A stretch of 64,000 nt of DNA from Candidatus Eiseniibacteriota bacterium. Lineage in GTDB: Bacteria > Joyebacterota > Joyebacteria > Joyebacterales > Joyebacteraceae. The notes under the pieces were generated by a model. The model ran no database searches. It was not told the DNA's origin and saw only the letters and a list, made by a program, of their open reading frames with translations. Where the stretch lies: the NCBI GenBank assembly GCA_030595835.1, contig JAUVLG010000002.1, forward strand, positions 19,147-83,146, in the 5' to 3' direction. Numbering within the stretch: the first letter of the stretch is position 1; every line of letters starts with the position of its first letter. Shown here in pieces: positions 4,331 through 63,735 of the stretch. The position numbers and the translations under genes were made by a program.

Positions 4331-7300
4331 CTACTTCATAAGGACGACCTTCCTGGTCAGCGCGGTGTCTTCTGCCGTCAGACGAACGAAGTAGATACCC
4401 GATGCAACGGGCACACCGTGACTGTCCGTGCCGTCCCAGGTAACAGAGCTCCGCCCGCCGGCCACTCTGCCGCTGGCAAGTGTTGTCACACGCGCACCGG
4501 CGATGTTGAAGACCGCCAGGTCGATGTCGGCGCCGCCGTCCGGAACGGCGTAGGCGATCATCGTGACGGGGTTGAACGGGTTGGGTACGTTCTGATCAAG
4601 CCTTGCCCCGGACACCGACCAGGATTCGTCCCCGGGCACGCCGACCTCGAGTTCGTAGTTGTAGAAGCCCGTGCGCCTGCTGTTGTGGCGCCAGCTGCCC
4701 CACTCGACGCCGTCTCCGTCGTCGTATGAGCCCTCGGTATCCCAGACGTAGACCAATCCGTCCATGCCGGAGACGATGACCTCAACGTCGCCATCGAGAT
4801 CGAGATCGGCCAGGGCCGGCGACGAGATGACCTCACCGTCTGTCTGGATGGGCCATCCGGCCAGCGGGGAGCCGTCGGTGTCGTATCCGTAGACCTTCCC
4901 GTTGTTGGAGCCCACCACTATCTCGACGTCCGGGTCGTTGTCGATGTTCCCCACCGACACGCTGCCGCGCTTGTCATTGAAGTCGCCGCCGACCATTGTC
5001 TGCGGCCACCCGGGGTAGACGGCGCCCTCCCAGGTCCAGACGTGGATCTTCGCGTCCGTACTCGTTATCAGGATCTCGAGGTCACCATCTCCGTCCAGGT
5101 CGGCAAGCGTTGGCGATGACGCGAAGTCGTCGTTCTGCACGCACGGCTGGGGCCAGTTTGGGAAGACCGATCCGTCGCTGGAGAAGAGCCAGACCTCGTT
5201 GCTGTTCGATGAGGCGACGACCTCTATCATGCCGTTGTTGTTCACGTCGCCGACTGCGACGGAACCTCTGGCGTCACCGCCGACGTTGACGGGCCATCCC
5301 TGCACCATTGATCCATCGGGGTTGAAGCAGTAGATGCTGTCCGAACGGGATGGAACGACGATCTCCAGATCGTAGTCGTGGTCGATGTCGACCACGGCCA
5401 CGGAGCCGAAGGCCCAGCTGGCGTCCAGCGAGGCGAAGGTGCCGTTTGGATTCAGGAACCCGGAGCCGTCAGCGTTCCACACGTAGAGATAGCCGTCCGC
5501 GCATGGAAGGATGATCTCATCGATGCCGTCGTGGTCCAGATCGGAGAGGGTGGGAGTGGCCCAGCAGAGCTTGTTCAACAAGACAGGCCAATTACCCGGG
5601 AGTACCGTTCCGTCCTCGGCGTTCCAGGCCCAGATCTCGTAGGCGGGATGCCCCTCGGGTCCCACGTCGCCGAAGGCGGCCCCCACGAGCTCCAGATACG
5701 GGTCACTGTCGAGCTGTCCGACGGCGATGGAGGACCTGTAGCCGCCCGTGCCTTCCTCAGCGAGCACGCCCTCCGTCCTCGGGTCGCCGTCACCATCAAT
5801 GATCTCGGTGCCGTCGTGATGCCAACCGTAGATCTCGCCCGACCCCACGAGCACCTCTAAGTCACCGTCCAGGTCCACGTCCACCGCGAGGGGGGAGCCG
5901 TACATGGCCTCGCCGCCCATCAGGGGCCATCCTGCCTGTGCCGGCGGGTTCGTGTTGATCTCAAGCGTGTCAGAGTGAACTCCCTCGTTGCCTGATGAGT
6001 CGATGGCGCTCACGTAGTAGTAGTACCTCTGATTCTCGGCGAGCCCCGCGTCCTCGTAGCAGGAGATCCGCTCGATGACGGCGGAGTTGACCTGCTCGAA
6101 CGTCCCGAAGGGATGGTCGGTCCTGTAGATGTCGTAGCCCCAGAGGTCCTCCGTGACGTCGGGATCCCACGTGAGGTAGATGGTCGTGGCCTTGACCCGG
6201 CCGTCGAGCCCCGTGGGTATGGGAGGTGCCACGACATCGAAGTTCTTGACCCACGTCTTCCCGTCCTCATCCGTCAGCACCAGTTCAAACTCCTGCGTGA
6301 TGGCGGAATTGACCGTGAAGACAAAGCCGGTCTGGCCGGAGGCGGCCGCGCCTGCTGCGATGTCACCCCACGTGTCCAGGCTGTCGGATATGGACACCTC
6401 CGCTGACGGGTAGTTCAGCTCGGCGCTCACGACGTCGGCCTCGCCGTTGCCCTCGTTCAGGATGTCGATCGTCAGAGTGACCGTCTCTCCGACGTGCGGG
6501 ACGCCGTCGTTGCCGTCATCGTAGTTGTTGCGGAGCTGCGTCAGGATCGGACGGAGCACCCTGAGGGTGTACGTGTCCGTCCAACTGCCGCGTGCCGGCT
6601 CGTCGAACTGGAGCGTGAACTCGATGTCGTAGTCGTTCGGGCACGAGTCCGCAATGTCGACCGAGAAAGCGGCCGGGTAGGCCACCTGGCTCGTTGCTCC
6701 GATGGTCCCCAGCGACTCCGTACCGTCTACGAGCGCCGCGTACGGGTCGGTAGTGGAGAGCGTTGCAGTGACGCCGGTCGCAGCCGTCAGGCCACCGTTT
6801 CCGACCGTGATGCCGAGTTCGACCGTCTCGCCGGCTTCGGCGCTGCCGTTGGCGTTGCCGTCGCTTCCGCCCACGGCATCGTCATCGACCGTGGTGGAGC
6901 GCAGTGTGAGGTGTGCGCCCGTGGACGACGTCACGCCGACTGAATCTTCGTAGGGGTAGTGGTTCTTCGCGGTAACGGTGATGGTCATTGAGCCCGTCGT
7001 CTGGGGCGTGAACGACAGTACCACCTGGCCGGACGCGTTGGTGTAGCCAGTCGCGTAGACCTCATCGTCCTTGACCAGACAGACAAGCGCGCTGTCTACC
7101 GCGGCCGGGTCGACCACGGTGACTGTCAGGTCGGTTGCGCCGAGCGGCACGCTCGAGTCGTGGATGGCCGACAGCGCTACGGGCCTCTTAGTCCAGAGGC
7201 GTGACTCCGGGTCGCCCAGGAACACGTAGCTCATCTGAGTCCAGCGATCCGTGTTGTCGTAGGACGACTCCGGCACGTAGGGGATCTTGCACATCGCGGA

Positions 7301-9034
7301 CACAACACCGGTTCTGTCGACTCCGTCGTAGAGCAGCTCGTGCCACGTGTAGTAGTAGTCTTTGGCCGTCGTGGGGAAGCAGAATCGCGTTGGGCCGAAG
7401 ACGAACGTTGAACCGCCGTTCGGGTTGTTCATGAAATGCTCGGCGATGCAGTCTTCCTCCGTCTTCGTTGACGTGCAGTTCAGCATCCAGAGGAAACCGC
7501 ATCTCTCGACCCCATTCGTGAGTGCATCGACGTCCTGGACCGTGATGTACTCGTTCTTGCTACACCGCAGGATGTCCTTGTTGCCGTGTCCCACGTGCGA
7601 TGTGATGTTGTGGCCGACGTTCAGCGAGTCCAGGGCCGCCTGTGCCGTCAGCTCGAACGACTCGGGGAACGGCTGGTAGTTCTGGTACACGAGCGCCGGG
7701 TGTACCTCGGGCGGGAGAAGCGGCAGGACCGGCTCGACTACGTGCTCGGCGCCGTCGGTGCTGATGAGCTGTCCCTCTTCCCAGTCGTAGGGAAACAGCA
7801 CTTCCGCCAAATACAGATTTCGAGCCGCGAAGAGGCCGTCGGGCATCTTCTCGTAGGTCAGCGTCTTCGTAACGAACGTCTCGACCTCGAGAGTGTTGGC
7901 TGTAGGCGCTCTGCCGACGAAGATGTCGGGGTACAGGTCAACGCTGTCGCCGGGAGACGTTACGCCCGCGTACCCCTCGCCGAACTTGCTGTCGCCGTCC
8001 AGGTTCCAGTTGTCGTCCAGGTCCGAGTAGTAGAGGTCGTTCGTCACCTCCCAGCCCCCGTAGTAAGCGGACCAGGCGTCCCTGATGGGCACGATGTTCG
8101 TTTCGCCGCCGAGCAGGATGAAGGTCGTTCCCCAGGACTCATACGCGTCCTGGATGAAGAAGCGAATGCGCTCGGTCAGGTCGGTCCCGCCAGAGTAGTT
8201 GGCATCGATCCAGGACACCGTCCGAATGACTGTCGGGATGCCCTTCTTCATCTTCCAGTCCACCAGGTCCTGGAAGTACGGCGCGAACTCGTCGCTCGTG
8301 ATGATGACGTACTCGACCGGGCTGCCCTCGAGTGACGGAGTGTAGCGGGGCATGAACCCATCCACACCTACTCCATCGACAACGTCGAGGTTCTGGAGCT
8401 TCCCTGCTACGTCCCACGGATTTTCCACCAGGCCCTCGACCAGTTCTCTATACAGTTTCTCGGAGCTTGCCGTCACCCGTATTCTCGGGTGCGCGCGGTT
8501 CGTGGCCGGCGTAAGCTCGAGTGCGACGGATACGTCGCTGGCCAGGATCAGCCGTCCACTCCCGGGCGAGTACTGCAATGGGTAGACCGCCACGCTCGCG
8601 ATGCGGTAGCCGCCCATGTAGCCCTCTCCGAGGTACTCGATACGGTTGCGGGGATAAAGCTCGTCGCTCTCATAGACGGAGCGGTCGGGATCGGCCCACA
8701 CGGCCGTCTCACCGATCGGCACCTCCGGCTGAGCGGGGAGAACTCTGTGGACTCCCGGGAGTTCCTCCTCGATGAGGTGGGAGATGGTCACGCCCTCCAC
8801 ACGCATGTCAGACGGCACCACGAAGCGCAGCACCCTCACGGGCAGCTCGGGCATCCCGACATCAGAGAGAGACCGGCATCCCTGCACGGTGACTTTCGAG
8901 AACTCACCCGCGGGTGCCACCGAAACCGCTTCACTGCTAAAAGATGTGTCGGTCGCGGGCCCTGCGGCCCATGCCGGCAGCGCCATGCACACGACGGCGA
9001 TGAGCAGCCAGTGTGCGAGGTATCTCGGGGCCAT
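4331..9034 (-). CDS. Secreted C25 (gingipain-like) cysteine peptidase with FG-GAP/beta-propeller repeats, FN3-like region and FlgD-like/T9SS C-terminal sorting domain (1567 aa)
   Basis: Signal peptide MAPRYLAHWLLIAVVCMALPAWAAGP. C25 core: VEYVIITSDEFAPYFQDLVDWKMKKGIPTVI...FILLGGETNIVPIRDA; catalytic-region motifs SHVGHGN and MLNCTS. Multiple DxDxDGxxE FG-GAP-like repeats (DLDGDGDLEILI, DVNNNGMIEVVA, DLDHDGIDEIIL, DLDLDGDVEVIV). C-terminus NPFNPVTMIAYAVP...VTWDGTDSHGVPVASGIYFVRLTAEDTALTRKVVLMK. Confidence 0.85.
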   Translation of the reverse strand: MAPRYLAHWLLIAVVCMALPAWAAGPATDTSFSSEAVSVAPAGEFSKVTVQGCRSLSDVGMPELPVRVLRFVVPSDMRVEGVTISHLIEEELPGVHRVLPAQPEVPIGETAVWADPDRSVYESDELYPRNRIEYLGEGYMGGYRIASVAVYPLQYSPGSGRLILASDVSVALELTPATNRAHPRIRVTASSEKLYRELVEGLVENPWDVAGKLQNLDVVDGVGVDGFMPRYTPSLEGSPVEYVIITSDEFAPYFQDLVDWKMKKGIPTVIRTVSWIDANYSGGTDLTERIRFFIQDAYESWGTTFILLGGETNIVPIRDAWSAYYGGWEVTNDLYYSDLDDNWNLDGDSKFGEGYAGVTSPGDSVDLYPDIFVGRAPTANTLEVETFVTKTLTYEKMPDGLFAARNLYLAEVLFPYDWEEGQLISTDGAEHVVEPVLPLLPPEVHPALVYQNYQPFPESFELTAQAALDSLNVGHNITSHVGHGNKDILRCSKNEYITVQDVDALTNGVERCGFLWMLNCTSTKTEEDCIAEHFMNNPNGGSTFVFGPTRFCFPTTAKDYYYTWHELLYDGVDRTGVVSAMCKIPYVPESSYDNTDRWTQMSYVFLGDPESRLWTKRPVALSAIHDSSVPLGATDLTVTVVDPAAVDSALVCLVKDDEVYATGYTNASGQVVLSFTPQTTGSMTITVTAKNHYPYEDSVGVTSSTGAHLTLRSTTVDDDAVGGSDGNANGSAEAGETVELGITVGNGGLTAATGVTATLSTTDPYAALVDGTESLGTIGATSQVAYPAAFSVDIADSCPNDYDIEFTLQFDEPARGSWTDTYTLRVLRPILTQLRNNYDDGNDGVPHVGETVTLTIDILNEGNGEADVVSAELNYPSAEVSISDSLDTWGDIAAGAAASGQTGFVFTVNSAITQEFELVLTDEDGKTWVKNFDVVAPPIPTGLDGRVKATTIYLTWDPDVTEDLWGYDIYRTDHPFGTFEQVNSAVIERISCYEDAGLAENQRYYYYVSAIDSSGNEGVHSDTLEINTNPPAQAGWPLMGGEAMYGSPLAVDVDLDGDLEVLVGSGEIYGWHHDGTEIIDGDGDPRTEGVLAEEGTGGYRSSIAVGQLDSDPYLELVGAAFGDVGPEGHPAYEIWAWNAEDGTVLPGNWPVLLNKLCWATPTLSDLDHDGIDEIILPCADGYLYVWNADGSGFLNPNGTFASLDASWAFGSVAVVDIDHDYDLEIVVPSRSDSIYCFNPDGSMVQGWPVNVGGDARGSVAVGDVNNNGMIEVVASSNSNEVWLFSSDGSVFPNWPQPCVQNDDFASSPTLADLDGDGDLEILITSTDAKIHVWTWEGAVYPGWPQTMVGGDFNDKRGSVSVGNIDNDPDVEIVVGSNNGKVYGYDTDGSPLAGWPIQTDGEVISSPALADLDLDGDVEVIVSGMDGLVYVWDTEGSYDDGDGVEWGSWRHNSRRTGFYNYELEVGVPGDESWSVSGARLDQNVPNPFNPVTMIAYAVPDGGADIDLAVFNIAGARVTTLASGRVAGGRSSVTWDGTDSHGVPVASGIYFVRLTAEDTALTRKVVLMK

Positions 9035-9320
9035 CGTTGTTCTCCTCTCTCACCAGGTGGGACCGTGACGTCCACCACAGATAGTTACAGGACCGAGGTC
9101 TTCTCACGACGACTCCCGATCCTGGCATTGCCAGGAACGACAAGGCGATGAACACTGCGCCGGCGCTGCAGGGCGGAATCACAAGGTGTTGCCCCGTCGC
9201 TATTCCGGCTTCGCTGTTGCACTGAGAAGCAGTAGCAGTGTTGTCTTAGCAGTGCTCCCGTTGCCCCGTCGGCTTCCCGACCTGAGCTTACGTTTTGAGG
9301 GATTATAGAAGGATTTTACC

Positions 9321-9365
9321 ACAAAAAGCCACGGGGGTCAAGGATGTTCCCAGTCCCTGACCCCC
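9321..9365 (-). terminator. Intrinsic terminator downstream of the second C25 gene
   Basis: On the minus strand: GGGGGUCA-(17-nt loop)-UGACCCCC hairpin (plus coordinates 9333-9365), followed after 2 nt by GGCUUUUUGUGG (rc of 9321-9330). Confidence 0.45.
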
Positions 9366-9485
9366 CGCAGCTTGTCTGAGTTTGCCTGTCGTCGCGTGGT
9401 GCTACTCTGGAGAAGCCCCGCTTGGCAGGTCTTTCCGGACGATCCGACCAGACCACATGGAACGGTCGGGCTCACCCGTTCCGAG

Positions 9486-12400
9486 CTACTTGAGCATCAC
9501 CATCTTCCTGGTCGCGTTCCAGGTGTCCACCGACAGGCGGCAGAAGTAGACGCCGGAGGCCACGGATTCCCCGTGGTCGTTCCGTCCGTCCCAGCTGGCA
9601 ACGTGGTTGCCGGCGTGCCCCGTCTCGTCCAGCACCGTGGCGATGCGCCTGCCCGCGACGTCGTAGATGTGCATCCGCACTCTGGCTCCGTCGTTCGCCA
9701 CCGAGTATCGGATCGACGTCGACGGATTGAAGGGATTGGGCGAGTTCTGCGAGAGCCGGTTGGCTCGGCCGATTCCGACGTCATCAACGCCGGTCGTGCC
9801 TATCAGGTCAGAGCCGTCCAGTATGCGCGTGACGTACTCGAGGCGTGTGGATGGATGAGAGCCGTCGGTCATTCCGCCCAGCAGGACTGGCACCATGTAG
9901 CGGCGGCCGCCCGTAGCAGCGTCGACGTAGAGCGCGCCGCGTTCCAGCCCGGCCTGGTCGAGCCAAACGAGCTCAGTGCCCGCGTCACCGTTCGGTCCCA
10001 CCTCACCCACGAACTGATCGCTCCATCCCTGGTAGTCGTAGTCGAACGACAAATCCTGCGTCGGCTCTCCCGATTGCCCGGCCACGGACTCGACGTTTCC
10101 GTCTCCCTTGCCGAGCCCGGTGACGTACGTTGCGTGGAATCTGTTCCAGAGGTCGAGCGCCGTCGGGCTGCCGTTGATGTAGTAGGAGCCGCCGAACATC
10201 GGCTCCTCGACGTAGACGTCACCGCCGGCGTCAAGAAAGCTCGTGAGCGCGGCCGCCTCGTCGTCGGTCATCTGCACGTTGGCGCCCGGTTCTCCGAAGT
10301 TGACGACGCCACCGAGGTAGATGATGAGTTCGAAGGGGGAGAGGTCGGCGGGGAGCGTCTCGGAGACGGAGTACAGCTCACCGACCGACTCGAGGGCCTC
10401 GATCCACGGTATCTCGCTGCCGTCGGCCGTGGTGTAATCGTCCCCGATCCCGTCGAACGGCTTATCGCCGTCATCGGCATCCCACAACAGGATGCTGGAG
10501 TTCACGCTGGCAGCGATCGGCCCCTTGGACCACACTTCCGTCCGCTCGTTACCCGAGAGGTCGACGGCGGTGAGCGCGTAGTAGTAGTGCTGCTTGTTCT
10601 CCGCAGTGACGTCGGTCCAGTCTGTCATGGCCGCGTCCAGCAGGTCCGTTGCTATGGGCGTCATCTCGGTGACATCCGAGAAGCGCTCGGTGTCGCGGTA
10701 GACCCGGTAGTGCGCGAAGTCGGACGGAGGTGCGTAGCCCGCCCAGTCCAGAAGGATGGCTCCACCTACGTCGAACGGATCGGCGGGTATCAGGTTATCG
10801 ACGGCCGCCGGGGCGTCTGTGTCCGGGGGCTGGTCGACGATGGACATGCTGCCCTCGTAGGGAAGGATGCCCTGGCCAGTGACCACGATCGTCATCGTTC
10901 CCTCGACGGTCGGCGCCGGAGACAACGTCGCCACGCCGTCGGGTCCGGTCGTCGCGACGACCGACAGCTCGCTGCAGGACAGGAACACGGTGGCGCCGTC
11001 GATCGCCTCGCCGTCTCGCGACACGGCCACGAGCAGCTCGTGCTCACCCAACGGTATCTCGCCGGCGTGCGCGACAGTGGACGTAACCGGATTCCTGGTC
11101 CATATGCGAGTCTCGGGATCGCCGAGCAGGTTGAGTTCGTAGAGAGTGTAGCGCGTGTAGCGTTCGGATCTCGCCAGTTCGACGAACGCGTCCTTGTGGG
11201 CCGCGTGGGCGACTCCCGCGTGCTCCAGTCCCTCGTTGAAGAGCTTGCTGAAGAACTCCCTGTCGAACTCGTCGCCGGTTCCATTGCCGGGGTTGCCGGG
11301 CGAGCCCCATCCATACCGGCTGTTGCCGACGTAGGCTATCCCGCCGCCGCCCGGTGAGTTGAGCCAGTGTTCCGCTATGCAGTCCCTGTCTATTGCCGCG
11401 GACCAGCAGCCCATTGAGTAGAACAGGCCGTAGCGGGGAGCGTTGGTCAGACCGTCGAAGTCCGAGCGGTAGAGCGCTCCGCTTCCGATGCACAGGACCG
11501 TCGTGTTGGCGTGACCGTTGTGGTTGATGATGTTGTAGCCGGTGTTCATCGCGGCGACGGCGCTCGAACGCGACAGGTTACCGCTCGTCTCATAGAGCTT
11601 CGTGATGGGATCGTATAGCTCCGGCACCGACTCGTCGTCGATCATGTTCTTGCAGATGGCGTGATCGGTCCAGGGGTTGGTCCAGAGAACCTCGGCCATG
11701 AAGAGTATATTCTCCAGATAGTCCGTCGGCAGCGGGTCGCCTCCCGGCGCTCCCTCGTAGGTCAGGACCTTGTTGACGAAGCGCGCGGCCTCGGTCGTGT
11801 TGTCGACCGGAGCGCGCCCGACGAACACGTCGGCATACATATCGATCTCGTCGAGCGAGATCTGGCCATACGTGCCGTTGCCGTTCGCGTCCCACGTGCC
11901 ATCGAGGTCGCCGTAGTACAGGTCGCAGCGGATCTGGTCTTCGTCCGGTGCGCCGCCGACGCCGGATGTCATTGCGTAGACCGTGCGGGCCGGGACGACG
12001 CCGGTGTCGCCTCCAAGAAGCACCCACATCGTGCCTTTGTTCTCGTAGTAGTCGATGATGCAGTTCCGGATCTGGTCCTGCTCGTCGACACCCGTGTAGT
12101 TGGAGTAGATCCACGTCGTGGTCACTACCTCGGTCGTCAGCCCCTTCTGCGCCTTCCAGTCAGCCAGTGTCTGGAATGTCGATTCGTAAGCGGAAGGAGC
12201 GATGATCAGGTAGTCGACCTCGCCGCGGCCGGCTCTGGGACCTGCCGATCGATCGATCACGTCTTCCGGATTGACGACGAGCGAGCGCGAACGCTCCGCG
12301 GCGGCGCTGGCCGACCTTGCGGAGAGCGGACCCGGGACCCGGGCCGTATTCGGCGCGAACTCGATCTTGAGAGATATCTCAGTGGTCTCATTGACGTAAA

Positions 12401-12902
12401 GCTTCCGCTCGGAGGCCACATACTGGACAGGGTAGAACGCAACGGTCGCGATCCCCTGGCCGGAGGCTGAGCCCGAGCCCAGGAGGACGCAGCTTCGCTC
12501 GGGGTAGGGACGCGACGATGCGTATGCCTCGGCATCCGCGTCGACCCAGGCAGCCGCCTCGAGTGTCGAGAGCGGTACCTCTGGCTGGCGTGGCCGCACC
12601 AGGAATGAGCCGGGACGTTCGCCCCGCGACAGGACCGTCGCCTCCGCACTCACCGCCACTGCCCCGTCTGGGAGAGCGAACCTGACGAGCATGAGCGGTA
12701 GTTCCGGGTACCCTTCTTCATGCGTCGTCAGTTCGCCTCGAAGGCGGACGACATCGAAGCCGTCTACCTGCTCGACGAAGAGATCCTGTTCCGCTACCTC
12801 CACTGTCGTCGTCAGCGCACTCTGTGACGCGAGAGCCATAGACGTGAGGGCGCAGAGAGCGGCGACAGTAGACAGCACTATCCGAAGACCGGACAGGCGC
12901 AT
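9486..12902 (-). CDS. Secreted C25 (gingipain-like) cysteine peptidase with FN3-like domain and FlgD-like/T9SS C-terminal sorting domain (1138 aa)
   Basis: Signal peptide MRLSGLRIVLSTVAALCALTSMALA. C25 core: VDYLIIAPSAYESTFQTLADWKAQKGLTTEVV...WVLLGGDTGVVPARTVYA; NHNGHAN His motif and SMGCWSAAID Cys motif. C-terminus NSPNPFNPSTSIRYSV...IYDVAGRRIATVLDETGHAGNHVASWDGRNDHGESVASGVYFCRLSVDTWNATRKMVMLK. Confidence 0.85.
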   Translation of the reverse strand: MRLSGLRIVLSTVAALCALTSMALASQSALTTTVEVAEQDLFVEQVDGFDVVRLRGELTTHEEGYPELPLMLVRFALPDGAVAVSAEATVLSRGERPGSFLVRPRQPEVPLSTLEAAAWVDADAEAYASSRPYPERSCVLLGSGSASGQGIATVAFYPVQYVASERKLYVNETTEISLKIEFAPNTARVPGPLSARSASAAAERSRSLVVNPEDVIDRSAGPRAGRGEVDYLIIAPSAYESTFQTLADWKAQKGLTTEVVTTTWIYSNYTGVDEQDQIRNCIIDYYENKGTMWVLLGGDTGVVPARTVYAMTSGVGGAPDEDQIRCDLYYGDLDGTWDANGNGTYGQISLDEIDMYADVFVGRAPVDNTTEAARFVNKVLTYEGAPGGDPLPTDYLENILFMAEVLWTNPWTDHAICKNMIDDESVPELYDPITKLYETSGNLSRSSAVAAMNTGYNIINHNGHANTTVLCIGSGALYRSDFDGLTNAPRYGLFYSMGCWSAAIDRDCIAEHWLNSPGGGGIAYVGNSRYGWGSPGNPGNGTGDEFDREFFSKLFNEGLEHAGVAHAAHKDAFVELARSERYTRYTLYELNLLGDPETRIWTRNPVTSTVAHAGEIPLGEHELLVAVSRDGEAIDGATVFLSCSELSVVATTGPDGVATLSPAPTVEGTMTIVVTGQGILPYEGSMSIVDQPPDTDAPAAVDNLIPADPFDVGGAILLDWAGYAPPSDFAHYRVYRDTERFSDVTEMTPIATDLLDAAMTDWTDVTAENKQHYYYALTAVDLSGNERTEVWSKGPIAASVNSSILLWDADDGDKPFDGIGDDYTTADGSEIPWIEALESVGELYSVSETLPADLSPFELIIYLGGVVNFGEPGANVQMTDDEAAALTSFLDAGGDVYVEEPMFGGSYYINGSPTALDLWNRFHATYVTGLGKGDGNVESVAGQSGEPTQDLSFDYDYQGWSDQFVGEVGPNGDAGTELVWLDQAGLERGALYVDAATGGRRYMVPVLLGGMTDGSHPSTRLEYVTRILDGSDLIGTTGVDDVGIGRANRLSQNSPNPFNPSTSIRYSVANDGARVRMHIYDVAGRRIATVLDETGHAGNHVASWDGRNDHGESVASGVYFCRLSVDTWNATRKMVMLK

Positions 12903-49299: not shown

Positions 49300-49317
49300 G
49301 CGCGGTCACGCGCTTCA

Positions 49318-49410
49318 AGGGCCGTTTCCCTACGCTGGCATTGCCCAGTTCAGGTTCACGGGGTATCATTCTCAGACCCTGGCGGGCCACCCCCAACGAC
49401 TCCTATGTTA
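49318..49410 (-). ncRNA. TPP (THI-box) riboswitch
   Basis: Reverse complement of 49321-49400 reads GUCGUUGGGGGUGGCCCGCCAGGGUCUGAGAAUGAUACCCCGUGAACCUGAACUGGGCAAUGCCAGCGUAGGGAAACGGC, containing the conserved GGGGUG, CUGAGA, ACCC, CCUGA and GCCAGCGUAGGGAA elements of the TPP aptamer, upstream of thi4. Confidence 0.85.
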
Positions 49411-51845: not shown

Positions 51846-51920
51846 CTTCCATGTGGTAGCGCCAACGGGAATCGAACCCGTGTTACCGGCTTGAGAGGCC
51901 GGCGTCCTAACCGCTGGACG
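51846..51920 (-). tRNA. tRNA-Glu (anticodon CUC), CCA encoded
   Basis: rc: GGCGCCAUCGUCCAGCGGUUAGGACGCCGGCCUCUCAAGCCGGUAACACGGGUUCGAUUCCCGUUGGCGCUACCA; cloverleaf with anticodon loop CUCUCAA. Confidence 0.85.
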
Positions 51921-51929
51921 ATGGCGCCT

Positions 51930-52003
51930 TCACTTTGTGGTTGGGGAGGGAGGATTCGAACCCCCGCCGGCGGATCCAGAGTCCGCTGTCCTACCACTAG
52001 ACG
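51930..52003 (-). tRNA. tRNA-Gln (anticodon CUG), CCA encoded
   Basis: rc: UGGGGAGUCGUCUAGUGGUAGGACAGCGGACUCUGGAUCCGCCGGCGGGGGUUCGAAUCCUCCCUCCCCAACCA; anticodon loop CUCUGGA. Confidence 0.85.
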
Positions 52004-52018
52004 ACTCCCCAGATCGTC

Positions 52019-58602: not shown

Positions 58603-60166
58603 AAACGGGTGGGCGCTTGCGCTCCTTTCCGTCGCGCTCTTGGCCCTCGTGTCGGCCTCGGCGTTGGCTGAGACCGACGTCTACGCGAGCGGCGTGGTGC
58701 GGGGGAAGTACCTCTACAGCACCGACGAGGAGGCATCCGTCTGGGACACCAGAGTCGATTTCGACGCCAGCATCGGAGCGCTGACGCTTGGGGCGGTCTA
58801 CCGGGGATTCTGGCTCTCGGACGACGAGTACAATCCCGCGAACGTTGTGGTGGCTGATCCCAACGACGTCAAACATCGCTACGCCGCGCTCGAGTACGAG
58901 GATTTGTACCTCAGGGCAGGGCATTTCTCCACGACGTTTGGGCACGGCCTGACGCTTCGGAGCTACGAGGACGTGGACCTTGAGCACGACACCCTGCTGG
59001 ATGGATTCTCCGCCGAATACGATGCTGGCGTGTTCGATGTTACGGTTCTGACCGGCGCGTCCAGGGAGGATTCAGGCGACAGGTTCTACGCGCATACCGT
59101 GCACGGTGCCCGGGTCAGCGTGCCCGTGGGCGAATGGGTGGAAGTCGCCGGCAGTGCCGTCGAGCGCTCGCGGATCTGGAACGACGAGGACGGCGAGTTC
59201 GGGGGTGACTTCGCCCGGTTCGAGGACAGCGTGCGCGGGGCGGAGGTGTCTGGTTGGATCGGACCATTCACGTTCGGGGGCGAGTACGCTGAGAGGAGCG
59301 GGGACTACCCGGAGGCGGCGAAGAAGGTCGATCCTGAGACCGGCGGGCTCGCGTACCCGCGGGGGCAGGTCGAGACGCAGGGCCACGCGACCTACGCTTC
59401 CGGAACGCTCGACCTCGGATGGGCCACGCTCTTCGGCGAGTTCAAGGACTTCGACGACTTCGCCCACAGCCTGGCCAATCCGCCGACGTGCGTGCGCGAG
59501 CACCTATGGACTTTGATGAACCGCGCAACCTACGAGGTGGATCTCAATGACGAGCGCGGTTTCCTCGTGGAGGGAAGTTCGGTTCTTGGTGACGCAGTCT
59601 TCGTGACGGGTGGGGCGTCGGAAGCCAGGAGCCACGATCGGGATCTTCGCCACTGGGAGATGTTCGGCCACGCGACCTACGACGTGGGCTCCGACATAAC
59701 GCTTGGTGCGGCCGCGTCACGATCGAGGGAGTACCTGTTCGGGGAGGAAGGCGGCATCGGGAAGTTCACCGAGCACACTACGGGAGTGGTGGAGGCCGAT
59801 CTCACCTTCGCGCTTGGGGCTCTCGGTGACCAGACGGTCGAGCTGACCCTTGAGATGCAGCGGACCGAGGATCCGGCCCTGGATACTCAAGATGACTACG
59901 TGGCATCGGTCGCGTGGTATCCGGGGCTGGATCTCATCCCGGGGCTGGAGGATCTCACGGTCTCCGGTGTCTACGAGAAGACGACCATCGATTGGGAGGA
60001 GCGACAGAACTGGATCATGCTCTCCGTCCGGAAGTCGTTTGCCAACGACCTCGAGGCGGAGATCGCAGGCGGCACCGAGCGTGGGGGCAAGAAGTGCGCG
60101 GGCGGCATCTGTCGCTACGAGCCTGAGTTCGAGGGCGTCAGATTCAGACTGACGAAGTTCTTCTAG
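58595..60166 (+). CDS. Putative outer-membrane beta-barrel protein
   Basis: Signal peptide LALLSVALLALVSASALA; alternating amphipathic beta-strand pattern; C-terminal ...VRFRLTKFF ending in an aromatic residue. TTG start overlaps the preceding stop. Confidence 0.5.
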   Translation: MSRNGWALALLSVALLALVSASALAETDVYASGVVRGKYLYSTDEEASVWDTRVDFDASIGALTLGAVYRGFWLSDDEYNPANVVVADPNDVKHRYAALEYEDLYLRAGHFSTTFGHGLTLRSYEDVDLEHDTLLDGFSAEYDAGVFDVTVLTGASREDSGDRFYAHTVHGARVSVPVGEWVEVAGSAVERSRIWNDEDGEFGGDFARFEDSVRGAEVSGWIGPFTFGGEYAERSGDYPEAAKKVDPETGGLAYPRGQVETQGHATYASGTLDLGWATLFGEFKDFDDFAHSLANPPTCVREHLWTLMNRATYEVDLNDERGFLVEGSSVLGDAVFVTGGASEARSHDRDLRHWEMFGHATYDVGSDITLGAAASRSREYLFGEEGGIGKFTEHTTGVVEADLTFALGALGDQTVELTLEMQRTEDPALDTQDDYVASVAWYPGLDLIPGLEDLTVSGVYEKTTIDWEERQNWIMLSVRKSFANDLEAEIAGGTERGGKKCAGGICRYEPEFEGVRFRLTKFF

Positions 60167-60175
60167 GAGGAATGG

Positions 60176-61243
60176 GTGCTGAGACGGGAGCATACGACGG
60201 TTTCGAGGGTCCGGAGCGAGGTTTTCATCGTCGCCCTTGTCGCGGTTGCGATAGCGGGCGGATGCGACTGGTTCGACGCCCCGTCGCAGATCAACCTTCC
60301 TCCTGAGACGACGATAACCGTGTGTCCGTCCTCGCTCGTTTCGCCCGGTGACAATGTCACCATCAAGTGGACGGGCAGCGACCGGGACGGCCAGGTCGTC
60401 GAATACGAGTGGACGCTCGATGACACGCTGGAAGGAACGACGCACGCCACGACGATGATGGTCACCGGTGTGGAGGAGGGAACGCACACTTTCACGGTGG
60501 CATCGATCGATAACGACGGTGATGTCGATGCGTCACCGGCGGAGTGCACGTTCACCGCCGGAGAGTACGTGGAGCGCGTCGTGCTCTGCGAGCTTCTGAC
60601 GACGAAGATATGTCCGAACTGCTGGAAGGCGGACCTGGTCCTCGAGCAGATGCTCGAGGAGTTTGGTGAGGAGAATCTTTCCGTGGTGTCGTACCACTAC
60701 GATCCGCCTCCCGATCCACTGGCGACGCCGGCGACGTTGGCGCGCTGTGACTGGTACTACACGTTCCCGGACTTCAGTCATCTCGGTGATGCCTTCCCGA
60801 CCACGTTGTTCGACGGGCTGACCTACAAGACCGGGGCGGCGGATATCACCGCGACGGAGATCGCCTACAGGACGCAGATCGAGGCTCGCCAGGTTGTCGG
60901 GTCGCCGGTGAGCATCGAGCTTCAGGGAGAGATCGGGGGGGGACGGGGGAGCGTGACGGCCACGGTGAGAGTTCACTACCAGTTGTCCGAGAGCTCCTAC
61001 ACACTTCGGATGATGATCATCGAGAATGACGTCTGGGATGGCGCTCACTTCGCCAGCTTCGTTGTGAGGGAGTTCTTGCTGGAGGAGGAGCTGCTGAACG
61101 TGGACGCCGTGGGCGAGTCGCTCGTCGTCAGCCGGGAGTTCGCGCTCGGCGACTGGAATGCGGAGTATCTGGATATCGTGGCACTGGTGCAGGACGACGC
61201 AACCGCGGAAGTACTCCAGTCCGGGCGGTTGATGACGGAATAG
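60176..61243 (+). CDS. Lipoprotein with Ig-like domain and thioredoxin-like CPNC module
   Basis: Lipobox VAIAGGC. Module VVLCELLTTKICPNCWKADLVLEQMLEEFGEENLSVVSYHY is homologous to the N-terminus of the 61644 gene (VLAEMFGATWCGYCPNATVALQQLQEEYGTDGLVCFYYHV). Confidence 0.6.
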   Translation: MLRREHTTVSRVRSEVFIVALVAVAIAGGCDWFDAPSQINLPPETTITVCPSSLVSPGDNVTIKWTGSDRDGQVVEYEWTLDDTLEGTTHATTMMVTGVEEGTHTFTVASIDNDGDVDASPAECTFTAGEYVERVVLCELLTTKICPNCWKADLVLEQMLEEFGEENLSVVSYHYDPPPDPLATPATLARCDWYYTFPDFSHLGDAFPTTLFDGLTYKTGAADITATEIAYRTQIEARQVVGSPVSIELQGEIGGGRGSVTATVRVHYQLSESSYTLRMMIIENDVWDGAHFASFVVREFLLEEELLNVDAVGESLVVSREFALGDWNAEYLDIVALVQDDATAEVLQSGRLMTE

Positions 61244-61369
61244 TCAGGTTGATGATTGATCGAATGATGGCTGGTTGAGGAAGCTAGTGGGCTGGAACAC
61301 TGCCTCTACAACAGAGAGGCGGCAGGATCCTGCGACAAACCGAGCGGTGTGACCGCAAGGGGAGAACAG

Positions 61370-61540
61370 CATGCTGAAGCGTTCGGCGATCCTGGGACTC
61401 GTGGTTCTGGTCCTGTGTATCGGCGTTCTTCCGGCAGTGTCCGCGCAGCGGACCGTGCTGGCGGAGCTTTTCGGGGCGACGTCGTGAGGCTTACCGCCAA
61501 CGAGGAGAACGCGTTCAGGAAGATGACGCTGCTCAAGTAG
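61370..61540 (+). pseudogene. Deletion-derived remnant of a paralog of the downstream gene (signal peptide plus 13 codons fused out of frame to the last 16 codons)
   Basis: MLKRSAILGLVVLVLCIGVLPAVSAQRTVLAELFGATS* (compare downstream MLRRAAIVIGLAVAVLLAGTVPAASAQRTVLAEMFGATW...). Immediately after, in the +2 frame: ...LTANEENAFRKMTLLK* (compare downstream end ...SSEDSAFRKMTLLK*). Confidence 0.6.
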
Positions 61541-61643
61541 CAGCTTCGAGTGGTGCGCCTAGTTGGTCTGTGTCGGACGCGCCCCCACGGAGCCCGCCTG
61601 CGCCGGGGGCCTTGAGTTGGATGACACCAGGAGGAGGAGCGAC

Positions 61644-63656
61644 ATGTTGAGGCGTGCGGCGATAGTTATCGGACTTGCTGTTGCGGTGCTTCTGGCGGGC
61701 ACGGTGCCCGCGGCGTCCGCCCAGCGAACGGTGCTGGCCGAGATGTTCGGAGCCACGTGGTGTGGCTACTGCCCGAACGCCACCGTGGCGCTGCAGCAGC
61801 TTCAGGAAGAGTACGGTACGGACGGTCTCGTTTGCTTCTACTATCATGTCGGCGATGCGTATGCGACCGCGGAGACGCACAACCGGGCCAGCTACTACGC
61901 GGTTGGCGGCATTCCCGAGGTCGACTTCGATGCTGTGACGGAGGTCGTGGGCGCCGGGACGAATATCTACGACGTCTACGCTCCGATCGTCGCGACGAGA
62001 TACGCGGAGTCGACCCCGGTTACCATTCGCACCGAGGGCGTTATCTACGCCGCGGGCGACCCCGACTCCAGCTGGGTGACGGCGGTGTTCAAGGCCGTCG
62101 ATACCGTGCCCTACGGTGACCTCAGGGCCTACTTCATCGTCTGCGAGAACACGAGCGAGGTCTATCCGTGGACAGTGCGGGACATGCTGCCGCCCTCCAC
62201 GGTCACCACGCTGGCGGCGGCCGGCGACTCCGTCGTCATCACCAGGAAGTTCAAGGTGGACGCGGCGTGGGACCTTGAGGAGCTCGGCGTGGTGGTCTTC
62301 ATTGAGGACACCGATCCGAAGCTGATCGTCAATGCTCAGGTGATGCCCGCACCGTTTAGCAACAGCTTCGGCCACGCGGACCGCTACGCGGTCGAGATCG
62401 ATTACTTGGGCGAGGCCATCTACCACATCGTTCTCGAGAACACCGGCGTGATGTCGGACGTCATCACGGTCGATATCGGTCACGATATTATCCCGGATGG
62501 TCTGGGGTCGTGGGATTGGGTCGCGTTCTACTGTGATACGGACGGCGCCTGTCACTTCGGCCCGTGGGACTTCGTGCTCGAGCCCGCGGCGAAGGAGACC
62601 TTCGACGTTCACATCTTGGACAACGTCGGCCACACTCAGGGCATGGCTCTGACCACGCTTAGCGCGACGAGCACGAGTGACCCCTCGATGATGTCCAGCG
62701 AGTCGTTTGCGACGTTCGTCGACCTGCCGTCGGTCCTGCTGGTCGACGACGACGGCGGCGCATCAGACGAGACGTATCTGGAGACGGCACTGACCGACAC
62801 GGGTTACACGGCGATGGTGTGGGACGCCGAGGTGAGGGGCAGGCCGTGCATGACACGTCTGGAGTCCTACTGGGCGGTCCTGTGGACCACGGGCGGTGGC
62901 TCCGCCGCCGATCTCGGCGGTTCCTGCGAGAACAACATGGCGGCGTACCTGGACGGCGGCGGAAACCTGCTGCTCTCGAGCATGGAGTTCCTGTCCAGCC
63001 GCGTCAACACGCTCGCGTTCCGGACGGACTACCTGCACATCGACTCGTACACGAGCGACAATGGTGGCTTCGTCGTTACGGGCGAGACGGGGGACGCCAT
63101 CTCGGCGGGGATGTCTCTGAATCTGCTCGGAGGTCCTTTCGCTCCCAATCCCAGCGACGTTTTCGTCGCGGGTTCCGCGGCCGATGTCATCTTCACGAGC
63201 CCGGCCGGGACCGAAGGTATTCGCGTTGAGGAGAACGACCACAAGGTGGTCTTCCTGAGCTTCCCGTTCGAGGACGTGAAGACCACGGAGGCCGCTCCCA
63301 ACAACCAGAAGACACTGATAGGGCGCATACTGAACTGGTTCAGCCTGCCGTCTGGTGTTGAGGCCGGACAGGTCCACCGCCTCGCGCTCCAGCCGAACTA
63401 CCCGAACCCGTTCAACCCCGTGACCAGGGTCGCGTTCTCGGTGCCCGAGGCCGCCGGACGGGTGAGCCTCACGGTCCACAACGTCAACGGTCAGGTGGTT
63501 CGCACGCTGGTCGATTCTGAGCTTCCCGCGGGTCCCGCGCTTGCCGTGTGGGATGGAACCGACGACCTCGGGCGCCCTCTCGCGTCCGGGATCTACTTCG
63601 CGAAGCTCGCATCGAGCGAGGACAGCGCGTTCCGGAAGATGACACTGCTGAAGTAA
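61644..63656 (+). CDS. Secreted thioredoxin-like CGYC-module protein with FlgD-like/T9SS C-terminal sorting domain
   Basis: ATG after GGAGGAGGAG; signal peptide; WCGYCPNA module; C-terminus NYPNPFNPVTRVAFSVPEAAGRVSLTVHNVNGQVVRTLVDSELPAGPALAVWDGTDDLGRPLASGIYFAKLASSEDSAFRKMTLLK. Confidence 0.7.
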   Translation: MLRRAAIVIGLAVAVLLAGTVPAASAQRTVLAEMFGATWCGYCPNATVALQQLQEEYGTDGLVCFYYHVGDAYATAETHNRASYYAVGGIPEVDFDAVTEVVGAGTNIYDVYAPIVATRYAESTPVTIRTEGVIYAAGDPDSSWVTAVFKAVDTVPYGDLRAYFIVCENTSEVYPWTVRDMLPPSTVTTLAAAGDSVVITRKFKVDAAWDLEELGVVVFIEDTDPKLIVNAQVMPAPFSNSFGHADRYAVEIDYLGEAIYHIVLENTGVMSDVITVDIGHDIIPDGLGSWDWVAFYCDTDGACHFGPWDFVLEPAAKETFDVHILDNVGHTQGMALTTLSATSTSDPSMMSSESFATFVDLPSVLLVDDDGGASDETYLETALTDTGYTAMVWDAEVRGRPCMTRLESYWAVLWTTGGGSAADLGGSCENNMAAYLDGGGNLLLSSMEFLSSRVNTLAFRTDYLHIDSYTSDNGGFVVTGETGDAISAGMSLNLLGGPFAPNPSDVFVAGSAADVIFTSPAGTEGIRVEENDHKVVFLSFPFEDVKTTEAAPNNQKTLIGRILNWFSLPSGVEAGQVHRLALQPNYPNPFNPVTRVAFSVPEAAGRVSLTVHNVNGQVVRTLVDSELPAGPALAVWDGTDDLGRPLASGIYFAKLASSEDSAFRKMTLLK

Positions 63657-63735
63657 CAGTCTCGCGTGCGCGCCAGGAAGGGTTCTCCGGACGTGCACCT
63701 GTTTCCGACAGTCACGGCGGGAAGGAGTCTCAACA

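Follow-up and report, generated by a model that had tools for sequence, protein, structure and literature searches.

The remnant and its surroundings

The window analysed here is a 64,000-nucleotide stretch of DNA from a Candidatus Eiseniibacteriota bacterium. Between a gene for a 355-residue protein and an intact gene for a secreted redox protein, termed B, it holds two short pieces of a further gene, termed A, together with a leader and a spacer that correspond to those of intact copies of A in related genomes. The features of the locus are the following:

60176..61243, + strand: upstream neighbour, 355 aa, with PKD and Omp28-like domains and a CPNC motif; left edge of the syntenic slot
61288..61370, + strand: 5' leader of the lost gene A, 83 nt, with an RBS-like GGGGAGAA at 61360-61367; 92% identical to L083 and L082
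61371..61487, + strand: head of the remnant, a 38-codon ORF (MLKRSAILGLVVLVLCIGVLPAVSAQRTVLAELFGATS, then stop), N-terminus of gene A, ending at TGA
61485..61487, + strand: putative former selenocysteine (Sec) codon of A, first position of the U/CxxC motif; aligns with the in-frame TGA of relatives and is now a terminator
61487..61491, + strand: deletion junction, the pentamer AGGCT, which intact A has at each of the two breakpoints
61492..61540, + strand: tail of the remnant, the last 16 codons and stop of gene A (...LTANEENAFRKMTLLK, then stop)
61541..61643, + strand: former A-B spacer, 103 nt, collinear with L081 and L082 to the start codon of B
61644..63656, + strand: gene B, the surviving Cys-type paralog, 670 aa, an intact T9SS-tagged secreted redox gene

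The loci of relatives carry L numbers and were read as stretches of 20 kb or less; L001 is JAUWCJ01, L081 is JAIVZG01, L083 is DAOUYB01 (DAOUYB010000004) and L003 is JBDRTQ01. Gene B encodes a signal peptide, an Omp28-like thioredoxin-fold domain with a WCGYC motif, a middle region and a FlgD-Ig / T9SS type A sorting tail; the Cys codon of its redox motif is TGT (61761-61763). Orthologs with 84-93% nucleotide identity are found in L001, L002, L004, L081, L082 and L083. The C-terminal family TIGR04183 is reached by B (24.2 bits), by A of L083 (24.4 bits) and by A of L003 (26.5 bits), all over the cutoff of 23. In Pfam, B passes for FlgD_ig (PF13860, 43.8 bits) and stays below the cutoff of 27 for PF18962 (21.9). 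Further upstream, the 355-aa gene is preceded by a DUF6029/porin-like gene and a TlpA/AhpC-like gene. By its homologs and related loci the window belongs to Candidatus Eisenbacteria. Exact-protein look-ups returned no record for the B protein or the upstream protein of the window, nor for the protein P0001.

The head of the remnant consists of a signal peptide of ~25 aa ending in VSA and 13 further residues. The tail peptide (...NEENAFRKMTLLK, then stop) terminates at 61540 in a frame other than that of the 38-codon ORF and represents the final strand of the T9SS C-terminal sorting domain. Nucleotide alignment against 61644-63656 gives significant similarity at both ends: 61431-61491 aligns with 61707-61767 at 79% identity (blastn within the window, E=6e-9) and 61501-61552 with 63617-63668 at 83% (E=2e-9), and the 38-aa peptide is 68% identical to the N-terminus of B (tblastn, E=7e-12). 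The 5' piece lies in frame with B at register offsets of 273/276, the signal peptide having an indel of one codon, and the offset of the 3' piece, 2116, equals 3n+1; a gap of ~1.84 kb and a change of frame are thus real. An earlier note on this DNA, made from the letters alone, had described a signal peptide plus 13 codons joined out of frame to the end of a T9SS-tagged gene, with roughly 1.9 kb of the middle missing. Its coordinates, identity estimate, description of the head and frame change are all borne out by the ORF calls and the in-window alignments. The ancestral protein cannot be encoded from what is left, given a 3n+1 deletion, a stop after codon 38 and a tail in another frame. A protein search with the 63-aa ORF that spans the junction (61349-61537) found no match.

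For the last ~35 nt of the remnant, encoding FRKMTLLK, the window has two further matches, each at the 3' end of another T9SS-tagged gene and one of them at 9485-9519 on the minus strand (86%), so that this part alone is a family motif. Two adjacent, very large genes on the minus strand, 4331-9034 (1567 aa) and 9486-12902 (1138 aa), are in part similar to PorU, the T9SS sortase, and to an M6-like protease that depends on the T9SS, and both have T9SS type A sorting tails whose last codons are similar to the tail of the remnant. The window further contains a TPP riboswitch (RF00059) at 49310-49404 on the minus strand, scoring 63.6 bits and over the gathering score, and a tRNA-Glu(CTC) and a tRNA-Gln(CTG) side by side at 51854-52011, also on the minus strand.

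Descent from the upstream paralog and the breakpoints

L083 and a JGI contig share with the window the gene order AhpC/TlpA - DUF6029 - upstream gene - [A] - B - M14 peptidase. In L083 an intact A of 671 aa (7880-9895) lies between a 359-aa gene and B, and full-length copies occupy the same slot in L003 and L168. The remnant follows these copies throughout. Over its 5' 204 nt (61288-61491) identity is 92% both with L083 7797-8000 and with L082 1001-1204, and 88% with L003. In its 3' part (61479-61643) the remnant is collinear with the tail of A and the whole A-B spacer up to the start codon of B: these 165 nt show 89% identity to L081 (1410-1574) and 82.5% to L082 (3003-3167) and L083, and 61500-61552 is identical to the tail of the intact A of L081. 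The same pieces are only 76-83% identical to B. The tail also carries A-type diagnostic bases, TTCAGG...CTCAAGTAG CAGCTTYGAGTGG, where the B type would read TTCCGG...CTGAAG. These comparisons identify the source of the remnant as paralog A, the first gene of an old tandem pair, and not the downstream gene B.

The age of that pair can be read from the relatives. A and B each form a monophyletic clade of their own, the branching order inside the two is the same, and the duplication is thus older than all these lineages; the remnant is hence not evidence of a recent duplication. The loss is another matter: the 3' flank of the window's remnant is 90% identical to the intact A of the nearest relative, L081, and the loss is thus young relative to that split. 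The recent dynamics proposed in the earlier note accordingly apply to the loss and not to the duplication. Its proposal of a tandem paralog collapsed by internal deletion is upheld by the full-length A at the syntenic site in L083, L003 and L168; its statement that the ends match the downstream gene is correct in that the similarity is significant (79% and 83%), but the best match is the upstream paralog, still intact in relatives.

The 76-83% likeness of both pieces to the ends of B could be taken to mean that a recent tandem duplicate of B collapsed, or that the segment is a recombination by-product of A-like and B-like paralogs. Both versions are very improbable. The leader (83 nt), both pieces and the spacer (103 nt) go back to A and are far closer to the intact A of relatives (88-92% and 82-90%), the diagnostic bases and the 3' UTR are those of A, the two clades are old and separate, and B is intact, with no B-derived segment in the remnant.

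Descent from A by internal deletion also accounts for the junction. Breakpoint registers were taken from L083, L082 and L003, and 3' ends were compared in six intact copies of A. The 5' site in intact A reads ...GCGAC(C TGG or G TCx) TG[A/C] GGC TAC TG..., the 3' site ...TAC TTC GCC AGG CT[T/G] GCC..., and the remnant, across the junction, ...ACG TCG TGA GGC T/TA CCG CC...; the pentamer AGGCT is thus present at both sites, as TG-AGGCT-AC and CC-AGGCT-TGCC. The first copy shares bases with the UGA at the base of the hairpin discussed below; the second falls within the sorting domain, in its last beta-strand. Measured on L083 the deletion is 1846 nt long, and on L003 1840 nt, both 3n+1. A longer overlap of 13 nt was considered as the repeat and rejected: 10 of the 13 positions match, and only AGGCT is exact in intact copies. 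This arrangement bears the signature of a microhomology-mediated illegitimate event.

A false join of the two ends of A during metagenome assembly or binning would give a similar picture, and the contigs of relatives do often end at the A/B boundary. In L004/L166 and L165 the assemblies stop 126-146 nt upstream of B, in the A-B spacer or the tail of A, probably because the two paralogs confuse assemblers; L167 has the same B protein as these broken-off contigs, with an A gene upstream. An artefact is nevertheless extremely improbable at this junction. Exact sharing there is only 5 nt, much shorter than the k-mers of any assembler; an independent metagenome-assembled genome, L001, has the same junction, with flanks that are 12-30% different; and the junction has a substitution of its own, TTACC.

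The in-frame TGA and the fates of A and B

In the alignment the TGA that terminates the head of the remnant corresponds to the in-frame TGA of intact A. Five copies in three lineages (A and B of L003, A of L082, A and B of L168) have such a TGA at the redox motif, T-W-TGA-G-Y-C-P, within the codon string TGG TGA GGC TAC TG[CT]; the homologous codon is TGC or TGT (Cys) in A of L083 and in all other B genes. Beyond the TGA, ~630 codons remain open and conserved in L003 and L168, down to ...FRKMTLLK and the stop.

In bacteria the SECIS element sits immediately 3' of the UGA (PMC1794560). All five Sec-type copies share one common hairpin that starts at the UGA and is built of an outer GGCU/AGCU stem, a CUGC/GCAG stem and an apical AACGCC/GGCGUU stem with the loop CGUGY. 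Its position and shape are what a bacterial SECIS would be expected to show. Predicted energies range from -21.6 to -24.1 kcal/mol, except in B of L168, whose minimum free energy fold (-19.5) is without the outer stem; against shuffled sequences the z scores of -0.8 to -1.1 are not significant in this GC-rich context, and there is almost no covariation. Sec-to-Cys conversions are reported to leave SECIS-like remnants (PMC1794560), and the Cys-type A of L083 still has the hairpin, with a weaker version in B of the window. In the remnants of the window and of L001 only the GGCU is left, and folds of 61485-61544 and of its L001 equivalent lack any such structure. The deletion took the hairpin with it, so that the UGA of the remnant can now only terminate. 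The remnant itself is not a functional selenoprotein gene, having neither a SECIS after the UGA nor an unbroken downstream frame. Ancestral A was most likely a selenoprotein with the motif U-G-Y-C, insertion of Sec at the TGA being indicated by the TGA itself, the conserved ORF, the candidate hairpin and the pattern of gene calls.

That pattern is as follows. Gene callers split intact A into ORFs of 38 and 623 aa. In L168 (750-866) and in a Logan contig this 38-aa ORF stands as a 'gene' of its own before an intact Sec-type A, and dozens of database homologs are 621-623 aa long and start with LQQLQ, just past the U position. Genes with an in-frame TGA are mis-annotated at 750-2765 and 2871-4880 in L168 and at 952-2961 and 3069-end in L003, as are database entries such as P0008, P0010, P0013, P0038, P0042 and P0044.

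No tRNA-Sec or Sec machinery was found in the 64-kb window, which says little on the whole genome. Other in-frame-TGA redox motifs (UxxC/CxxU) in the window gave only matches in implausible frames, and Rfam yielded no SECIS family at the gathering threshold in the window. Literature searches on Omp28 selenoproteins and on selenocysteine in Eisenbacteria found no paper.

Gene A has met different ends in the relatives:

Sec-type A, intact: L003, L168
Cys-type A, intact: L083
A open over at least 489-584 codons, 5' end off the contig: L081, L167
A with TGA and a 35-nt frame-breaking deletion: L082, at ~1699
A with a 71-nt frame-breaking deletion: L002, at ~197
A with the 1.85-kb deletion: window, L001

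In L082 and L002 gene B is intact despite the deletions in A. Microhomology at these two deletions is 1-2 nt at most, so they could be assembly errors; they represent either parallel decay of A or such errors. Gene B is of the Sec type (TGA) in L003 and L168 and of the Cys type in all closer relatives, with TGT in the clade of the window and L081 and TGC in L001, L002, L082, L083 and L167. Both codons are one step from TGA, so the conversion of B from Sec to Cys may have occurred twice. The loss of A would thereby belong to a lineage-wide move away from Sec in the A/B family.

The segment 61288-61643 is very probably the rest of A, an old tandem and likely Sec-type paralog that was lost through one AGGCT microhomology deletion of ~1846 nt. 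The course of events would have begun with an ancestral pair, A and B, of T9SS-tagged, signal-peptide-bearing, Omp28-like thiol-redox proteins in Candidatus Eisenbacteria, the redox motif of A being U-G-Y-C, with an in-frame UGA followed immediately by a SECIS-like hairpin. In the relatives of the window, B would have become Cys-type, and A would have turned to Cys (L083) or been broken (L082, L002, the window and L001). In the window a single microhomology-mediated deletion between the two AGGCT pentamers would have removed everything from 2 nt past the UGA to 16 codons short of the stop of A, shifting the frame by +1. This would have spared the leader and the first 38 codons of A, up to the orphaned UGA, as well as the A-B spacer and, in another frame, the 16 final codons of A.

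A shared junction, residual activity and known systems

Locus L001, an independent assembly that is ~15% diverged, has a junction identical to that of the window over 61473-61508, including the substitution TTACC, which is present in none of the six intact A copies. The surroundings tell a different story. By identity of B, the window groups with L081 (93.5%) and L001 with L082, L083, L002 and L004 (89-90%), with ~85% between the groups. The 3' flanks of the remnants are 90% identical between the window and L081 and 88% between L001 and L002, and only 70% between the window and L001. Vertical inheritance of one old deletion was therefore rejected: the flank in the window is closer to the intact A of L081 (90%) than to the remnant of L001 (70%). 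Beside the remnant lies a mosaic block, 59389-61163, which takes in the 355-aa gene and the DUF6029 gene's 3' half. Across it the window and L001 are 82-88% identical, and the identity of L083 to either of them is only 55-71%; over the rest of the 10-kb syntenic region no pair is closer than L001 and L083 (87-95%). Import of the block by recombination is thus suggested. Leader and signal-peptide haplotypes are likewise reshuffled among the loci.

Given the shared junction and the shared private base, a single origin of the deletion, subsequently spread or patched by homologous recombination, is favoured; the alternative is recurrent deletion at the same site. No further carriers of the junction were found when the degenerate pattern ACNTSNTGAGGCTNRCCRCCRAYGAGRAG was scanned against metagenome contigs (0 matches), and when metagenome contigs were scanned with a profile of the A/B alignment, matches to the generic T9SS-tail PNPFNPVT dominated and no close A/B locus emerged.

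The leader of ~83-85 nt is almost invariant across the window, L001, L082, L083 and L003 and is more conserved than the coding genes. In the five-locus alignment two hairpins with variable loops and 19 pairs are predicted; the pairs show no compensatory changes, only changes from G-C to G-U in L001. No Rfam match was obtained in 61200-61700 at E<=1, and scans of 61100-61750 for sigma-70 promoters and intrinsic terminators found nothing. A GC-rich hairpin of 12-13 bp, without a U-tract, follows directly on the stop of A in all intact loci (L083 9905-9935; also L082, L003, L081 and L167); it is weakened in the remnant of L001 and lost in the window (about 61552-61585). Over 199 nt the window has 4 private substitutions, as in functional copies, and L001 has 11, of which 6 fall in the otherwise invariant leader and one in the RBS. 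Between the window and L001 the 38-codon ORFs differ by 6 synonymous and 3 non-synonymous codon changes, and the untranslatable 3' piece, read in its old frame, shows the same synonymous bias (3 of 4 changes). The bias between the remnants is best read as divergence gained while A was intact.

These data bear on whether the remnant could be functional, with the promoter and leader of A driving or tuning B through a 38-codon uORF, or with the 38-aa product having a role of its own. Such a role would be consistent with the intact leader and ORF in both carriers, with the few private changes of the window's copy, with the excess of synonymous changes and with the disappearance from the window of a hairpin that could stop transcription. 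It is improbable all the same: the accelerated change in L001, which extends to leader and RBS, indicates relaxed constraint; the synonymous bias is explained equally well by divergence before the loss, given that the dead 3' piece displays it too; the region has no promoter- or terminator-like consensus and no known RNA family; and only two carriers were found. The remnant of A thus probably does nothing of its own, although some residual promoter or leader activity is possible.

A wider scenario is put forward tentatively and is rather doubtful as a whole. The deletion allele would have moved between Eisenbacteria species ~15% diverged by short-tract homologous recombination, or would have arisen twice, the base of the SECIS hairpin being a hot spot for such deletions. 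In both cases it would form part of a process, still under way across the lineage, in which Sec is given up in T9SS-secreted thiol oxidoreductases, with Sec kept in L003 and L168, replaced by Cys in B and in A of L083, and A destroyed by at least three different deletions. The promoter and leader of A may, in addition, have been co-opted for B.

The locus has a value beyond the single remnant. It brings to light an unannotated pair of T9SS-tagged, presumably cell-surface candidate selenoproteins in Candidatus Eisenbacteria, which public gene calls systematically truncate or split into products of 38 aa and 621-623 aa. A 38-codon 'small ORF with signal peptide' should accordingly be annotated with caution: it can be the head of a candidate selenoprotein or, as here, its tombstone. 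The sharing of one junction across clades is unusual. Sec, Cys, small frame-breaking deletions and a large deletion occur as a natural series at one locus, which could serve to study how bacteria give up selenocysteine.

Selenoprotein genes in bacteria are known to be converted to Cys or lost, with SECIS-like hairpins as remnants (Zhang, Romero, Salinas, Gladyshev 2006, PMC1794560). The A/B family, with its UxxC/CxxC motifs and its Sec, Cys and lost copies in sister lineages, conforms to this published pattern of Sec loss, and the Cys-type A of L083, which keeps the hairpin after its Cys codon, resembles the published conversion remnants. Unlike the cases described there, the lost copy is here visible as a two-ended remnant whose head stops at a putative orphaned Sec codon; the text of that paper uses neither 'pseudogene' nor 'fossil'.

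Among described families, NF045500 ('Omp28-related selenoprotein') and NF033782 ('Omp28 family outer membrane lipoprotein') align with the N-terminal ~115-230 residues of A and B, around the redox motif, at E = 1e-9 to 1e-14. A known relative with Sec thus exists. A and B score 38-53 bits against cutoffs of 150-200 (for NF045500, with a cutoff of 200, 47.5 bits for B, 38.8 for A of L083 and 37.9 for A of L003 with U replaced by C) and are therefore not members of these families but distant relatives. At ~670 aa they differ from them also by a large extra middle region and the FlgD-Ig/T9SS tail. With T9SS type A cargo (TIGR04183 / PF18962, FlgD_ig PF13860), B and intact A share the C-terminal domain; the 3' piece of the remnant is the last strand of that domain and keeps only 16 of its codons, out of frame, and hence has no sorting function.

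As a single out-of-frame internal deletion between short direct repeats, with both ends kept, the remnant resembles pseudogenes produced by microhomology (illegitimate, slipped-strand) deletion. It differs from the usual ones in that one breakpoint lies at the foot of a predicted stable hairpin, directly at a putatively recoded codon, and in that the identical junction occurs in two lineages whose flanks follow different clades. The remnant of A is a genuine pseudogene remnant and a fresh example of a known process, set in the known pattern of replacement and loss of selenocysteine.
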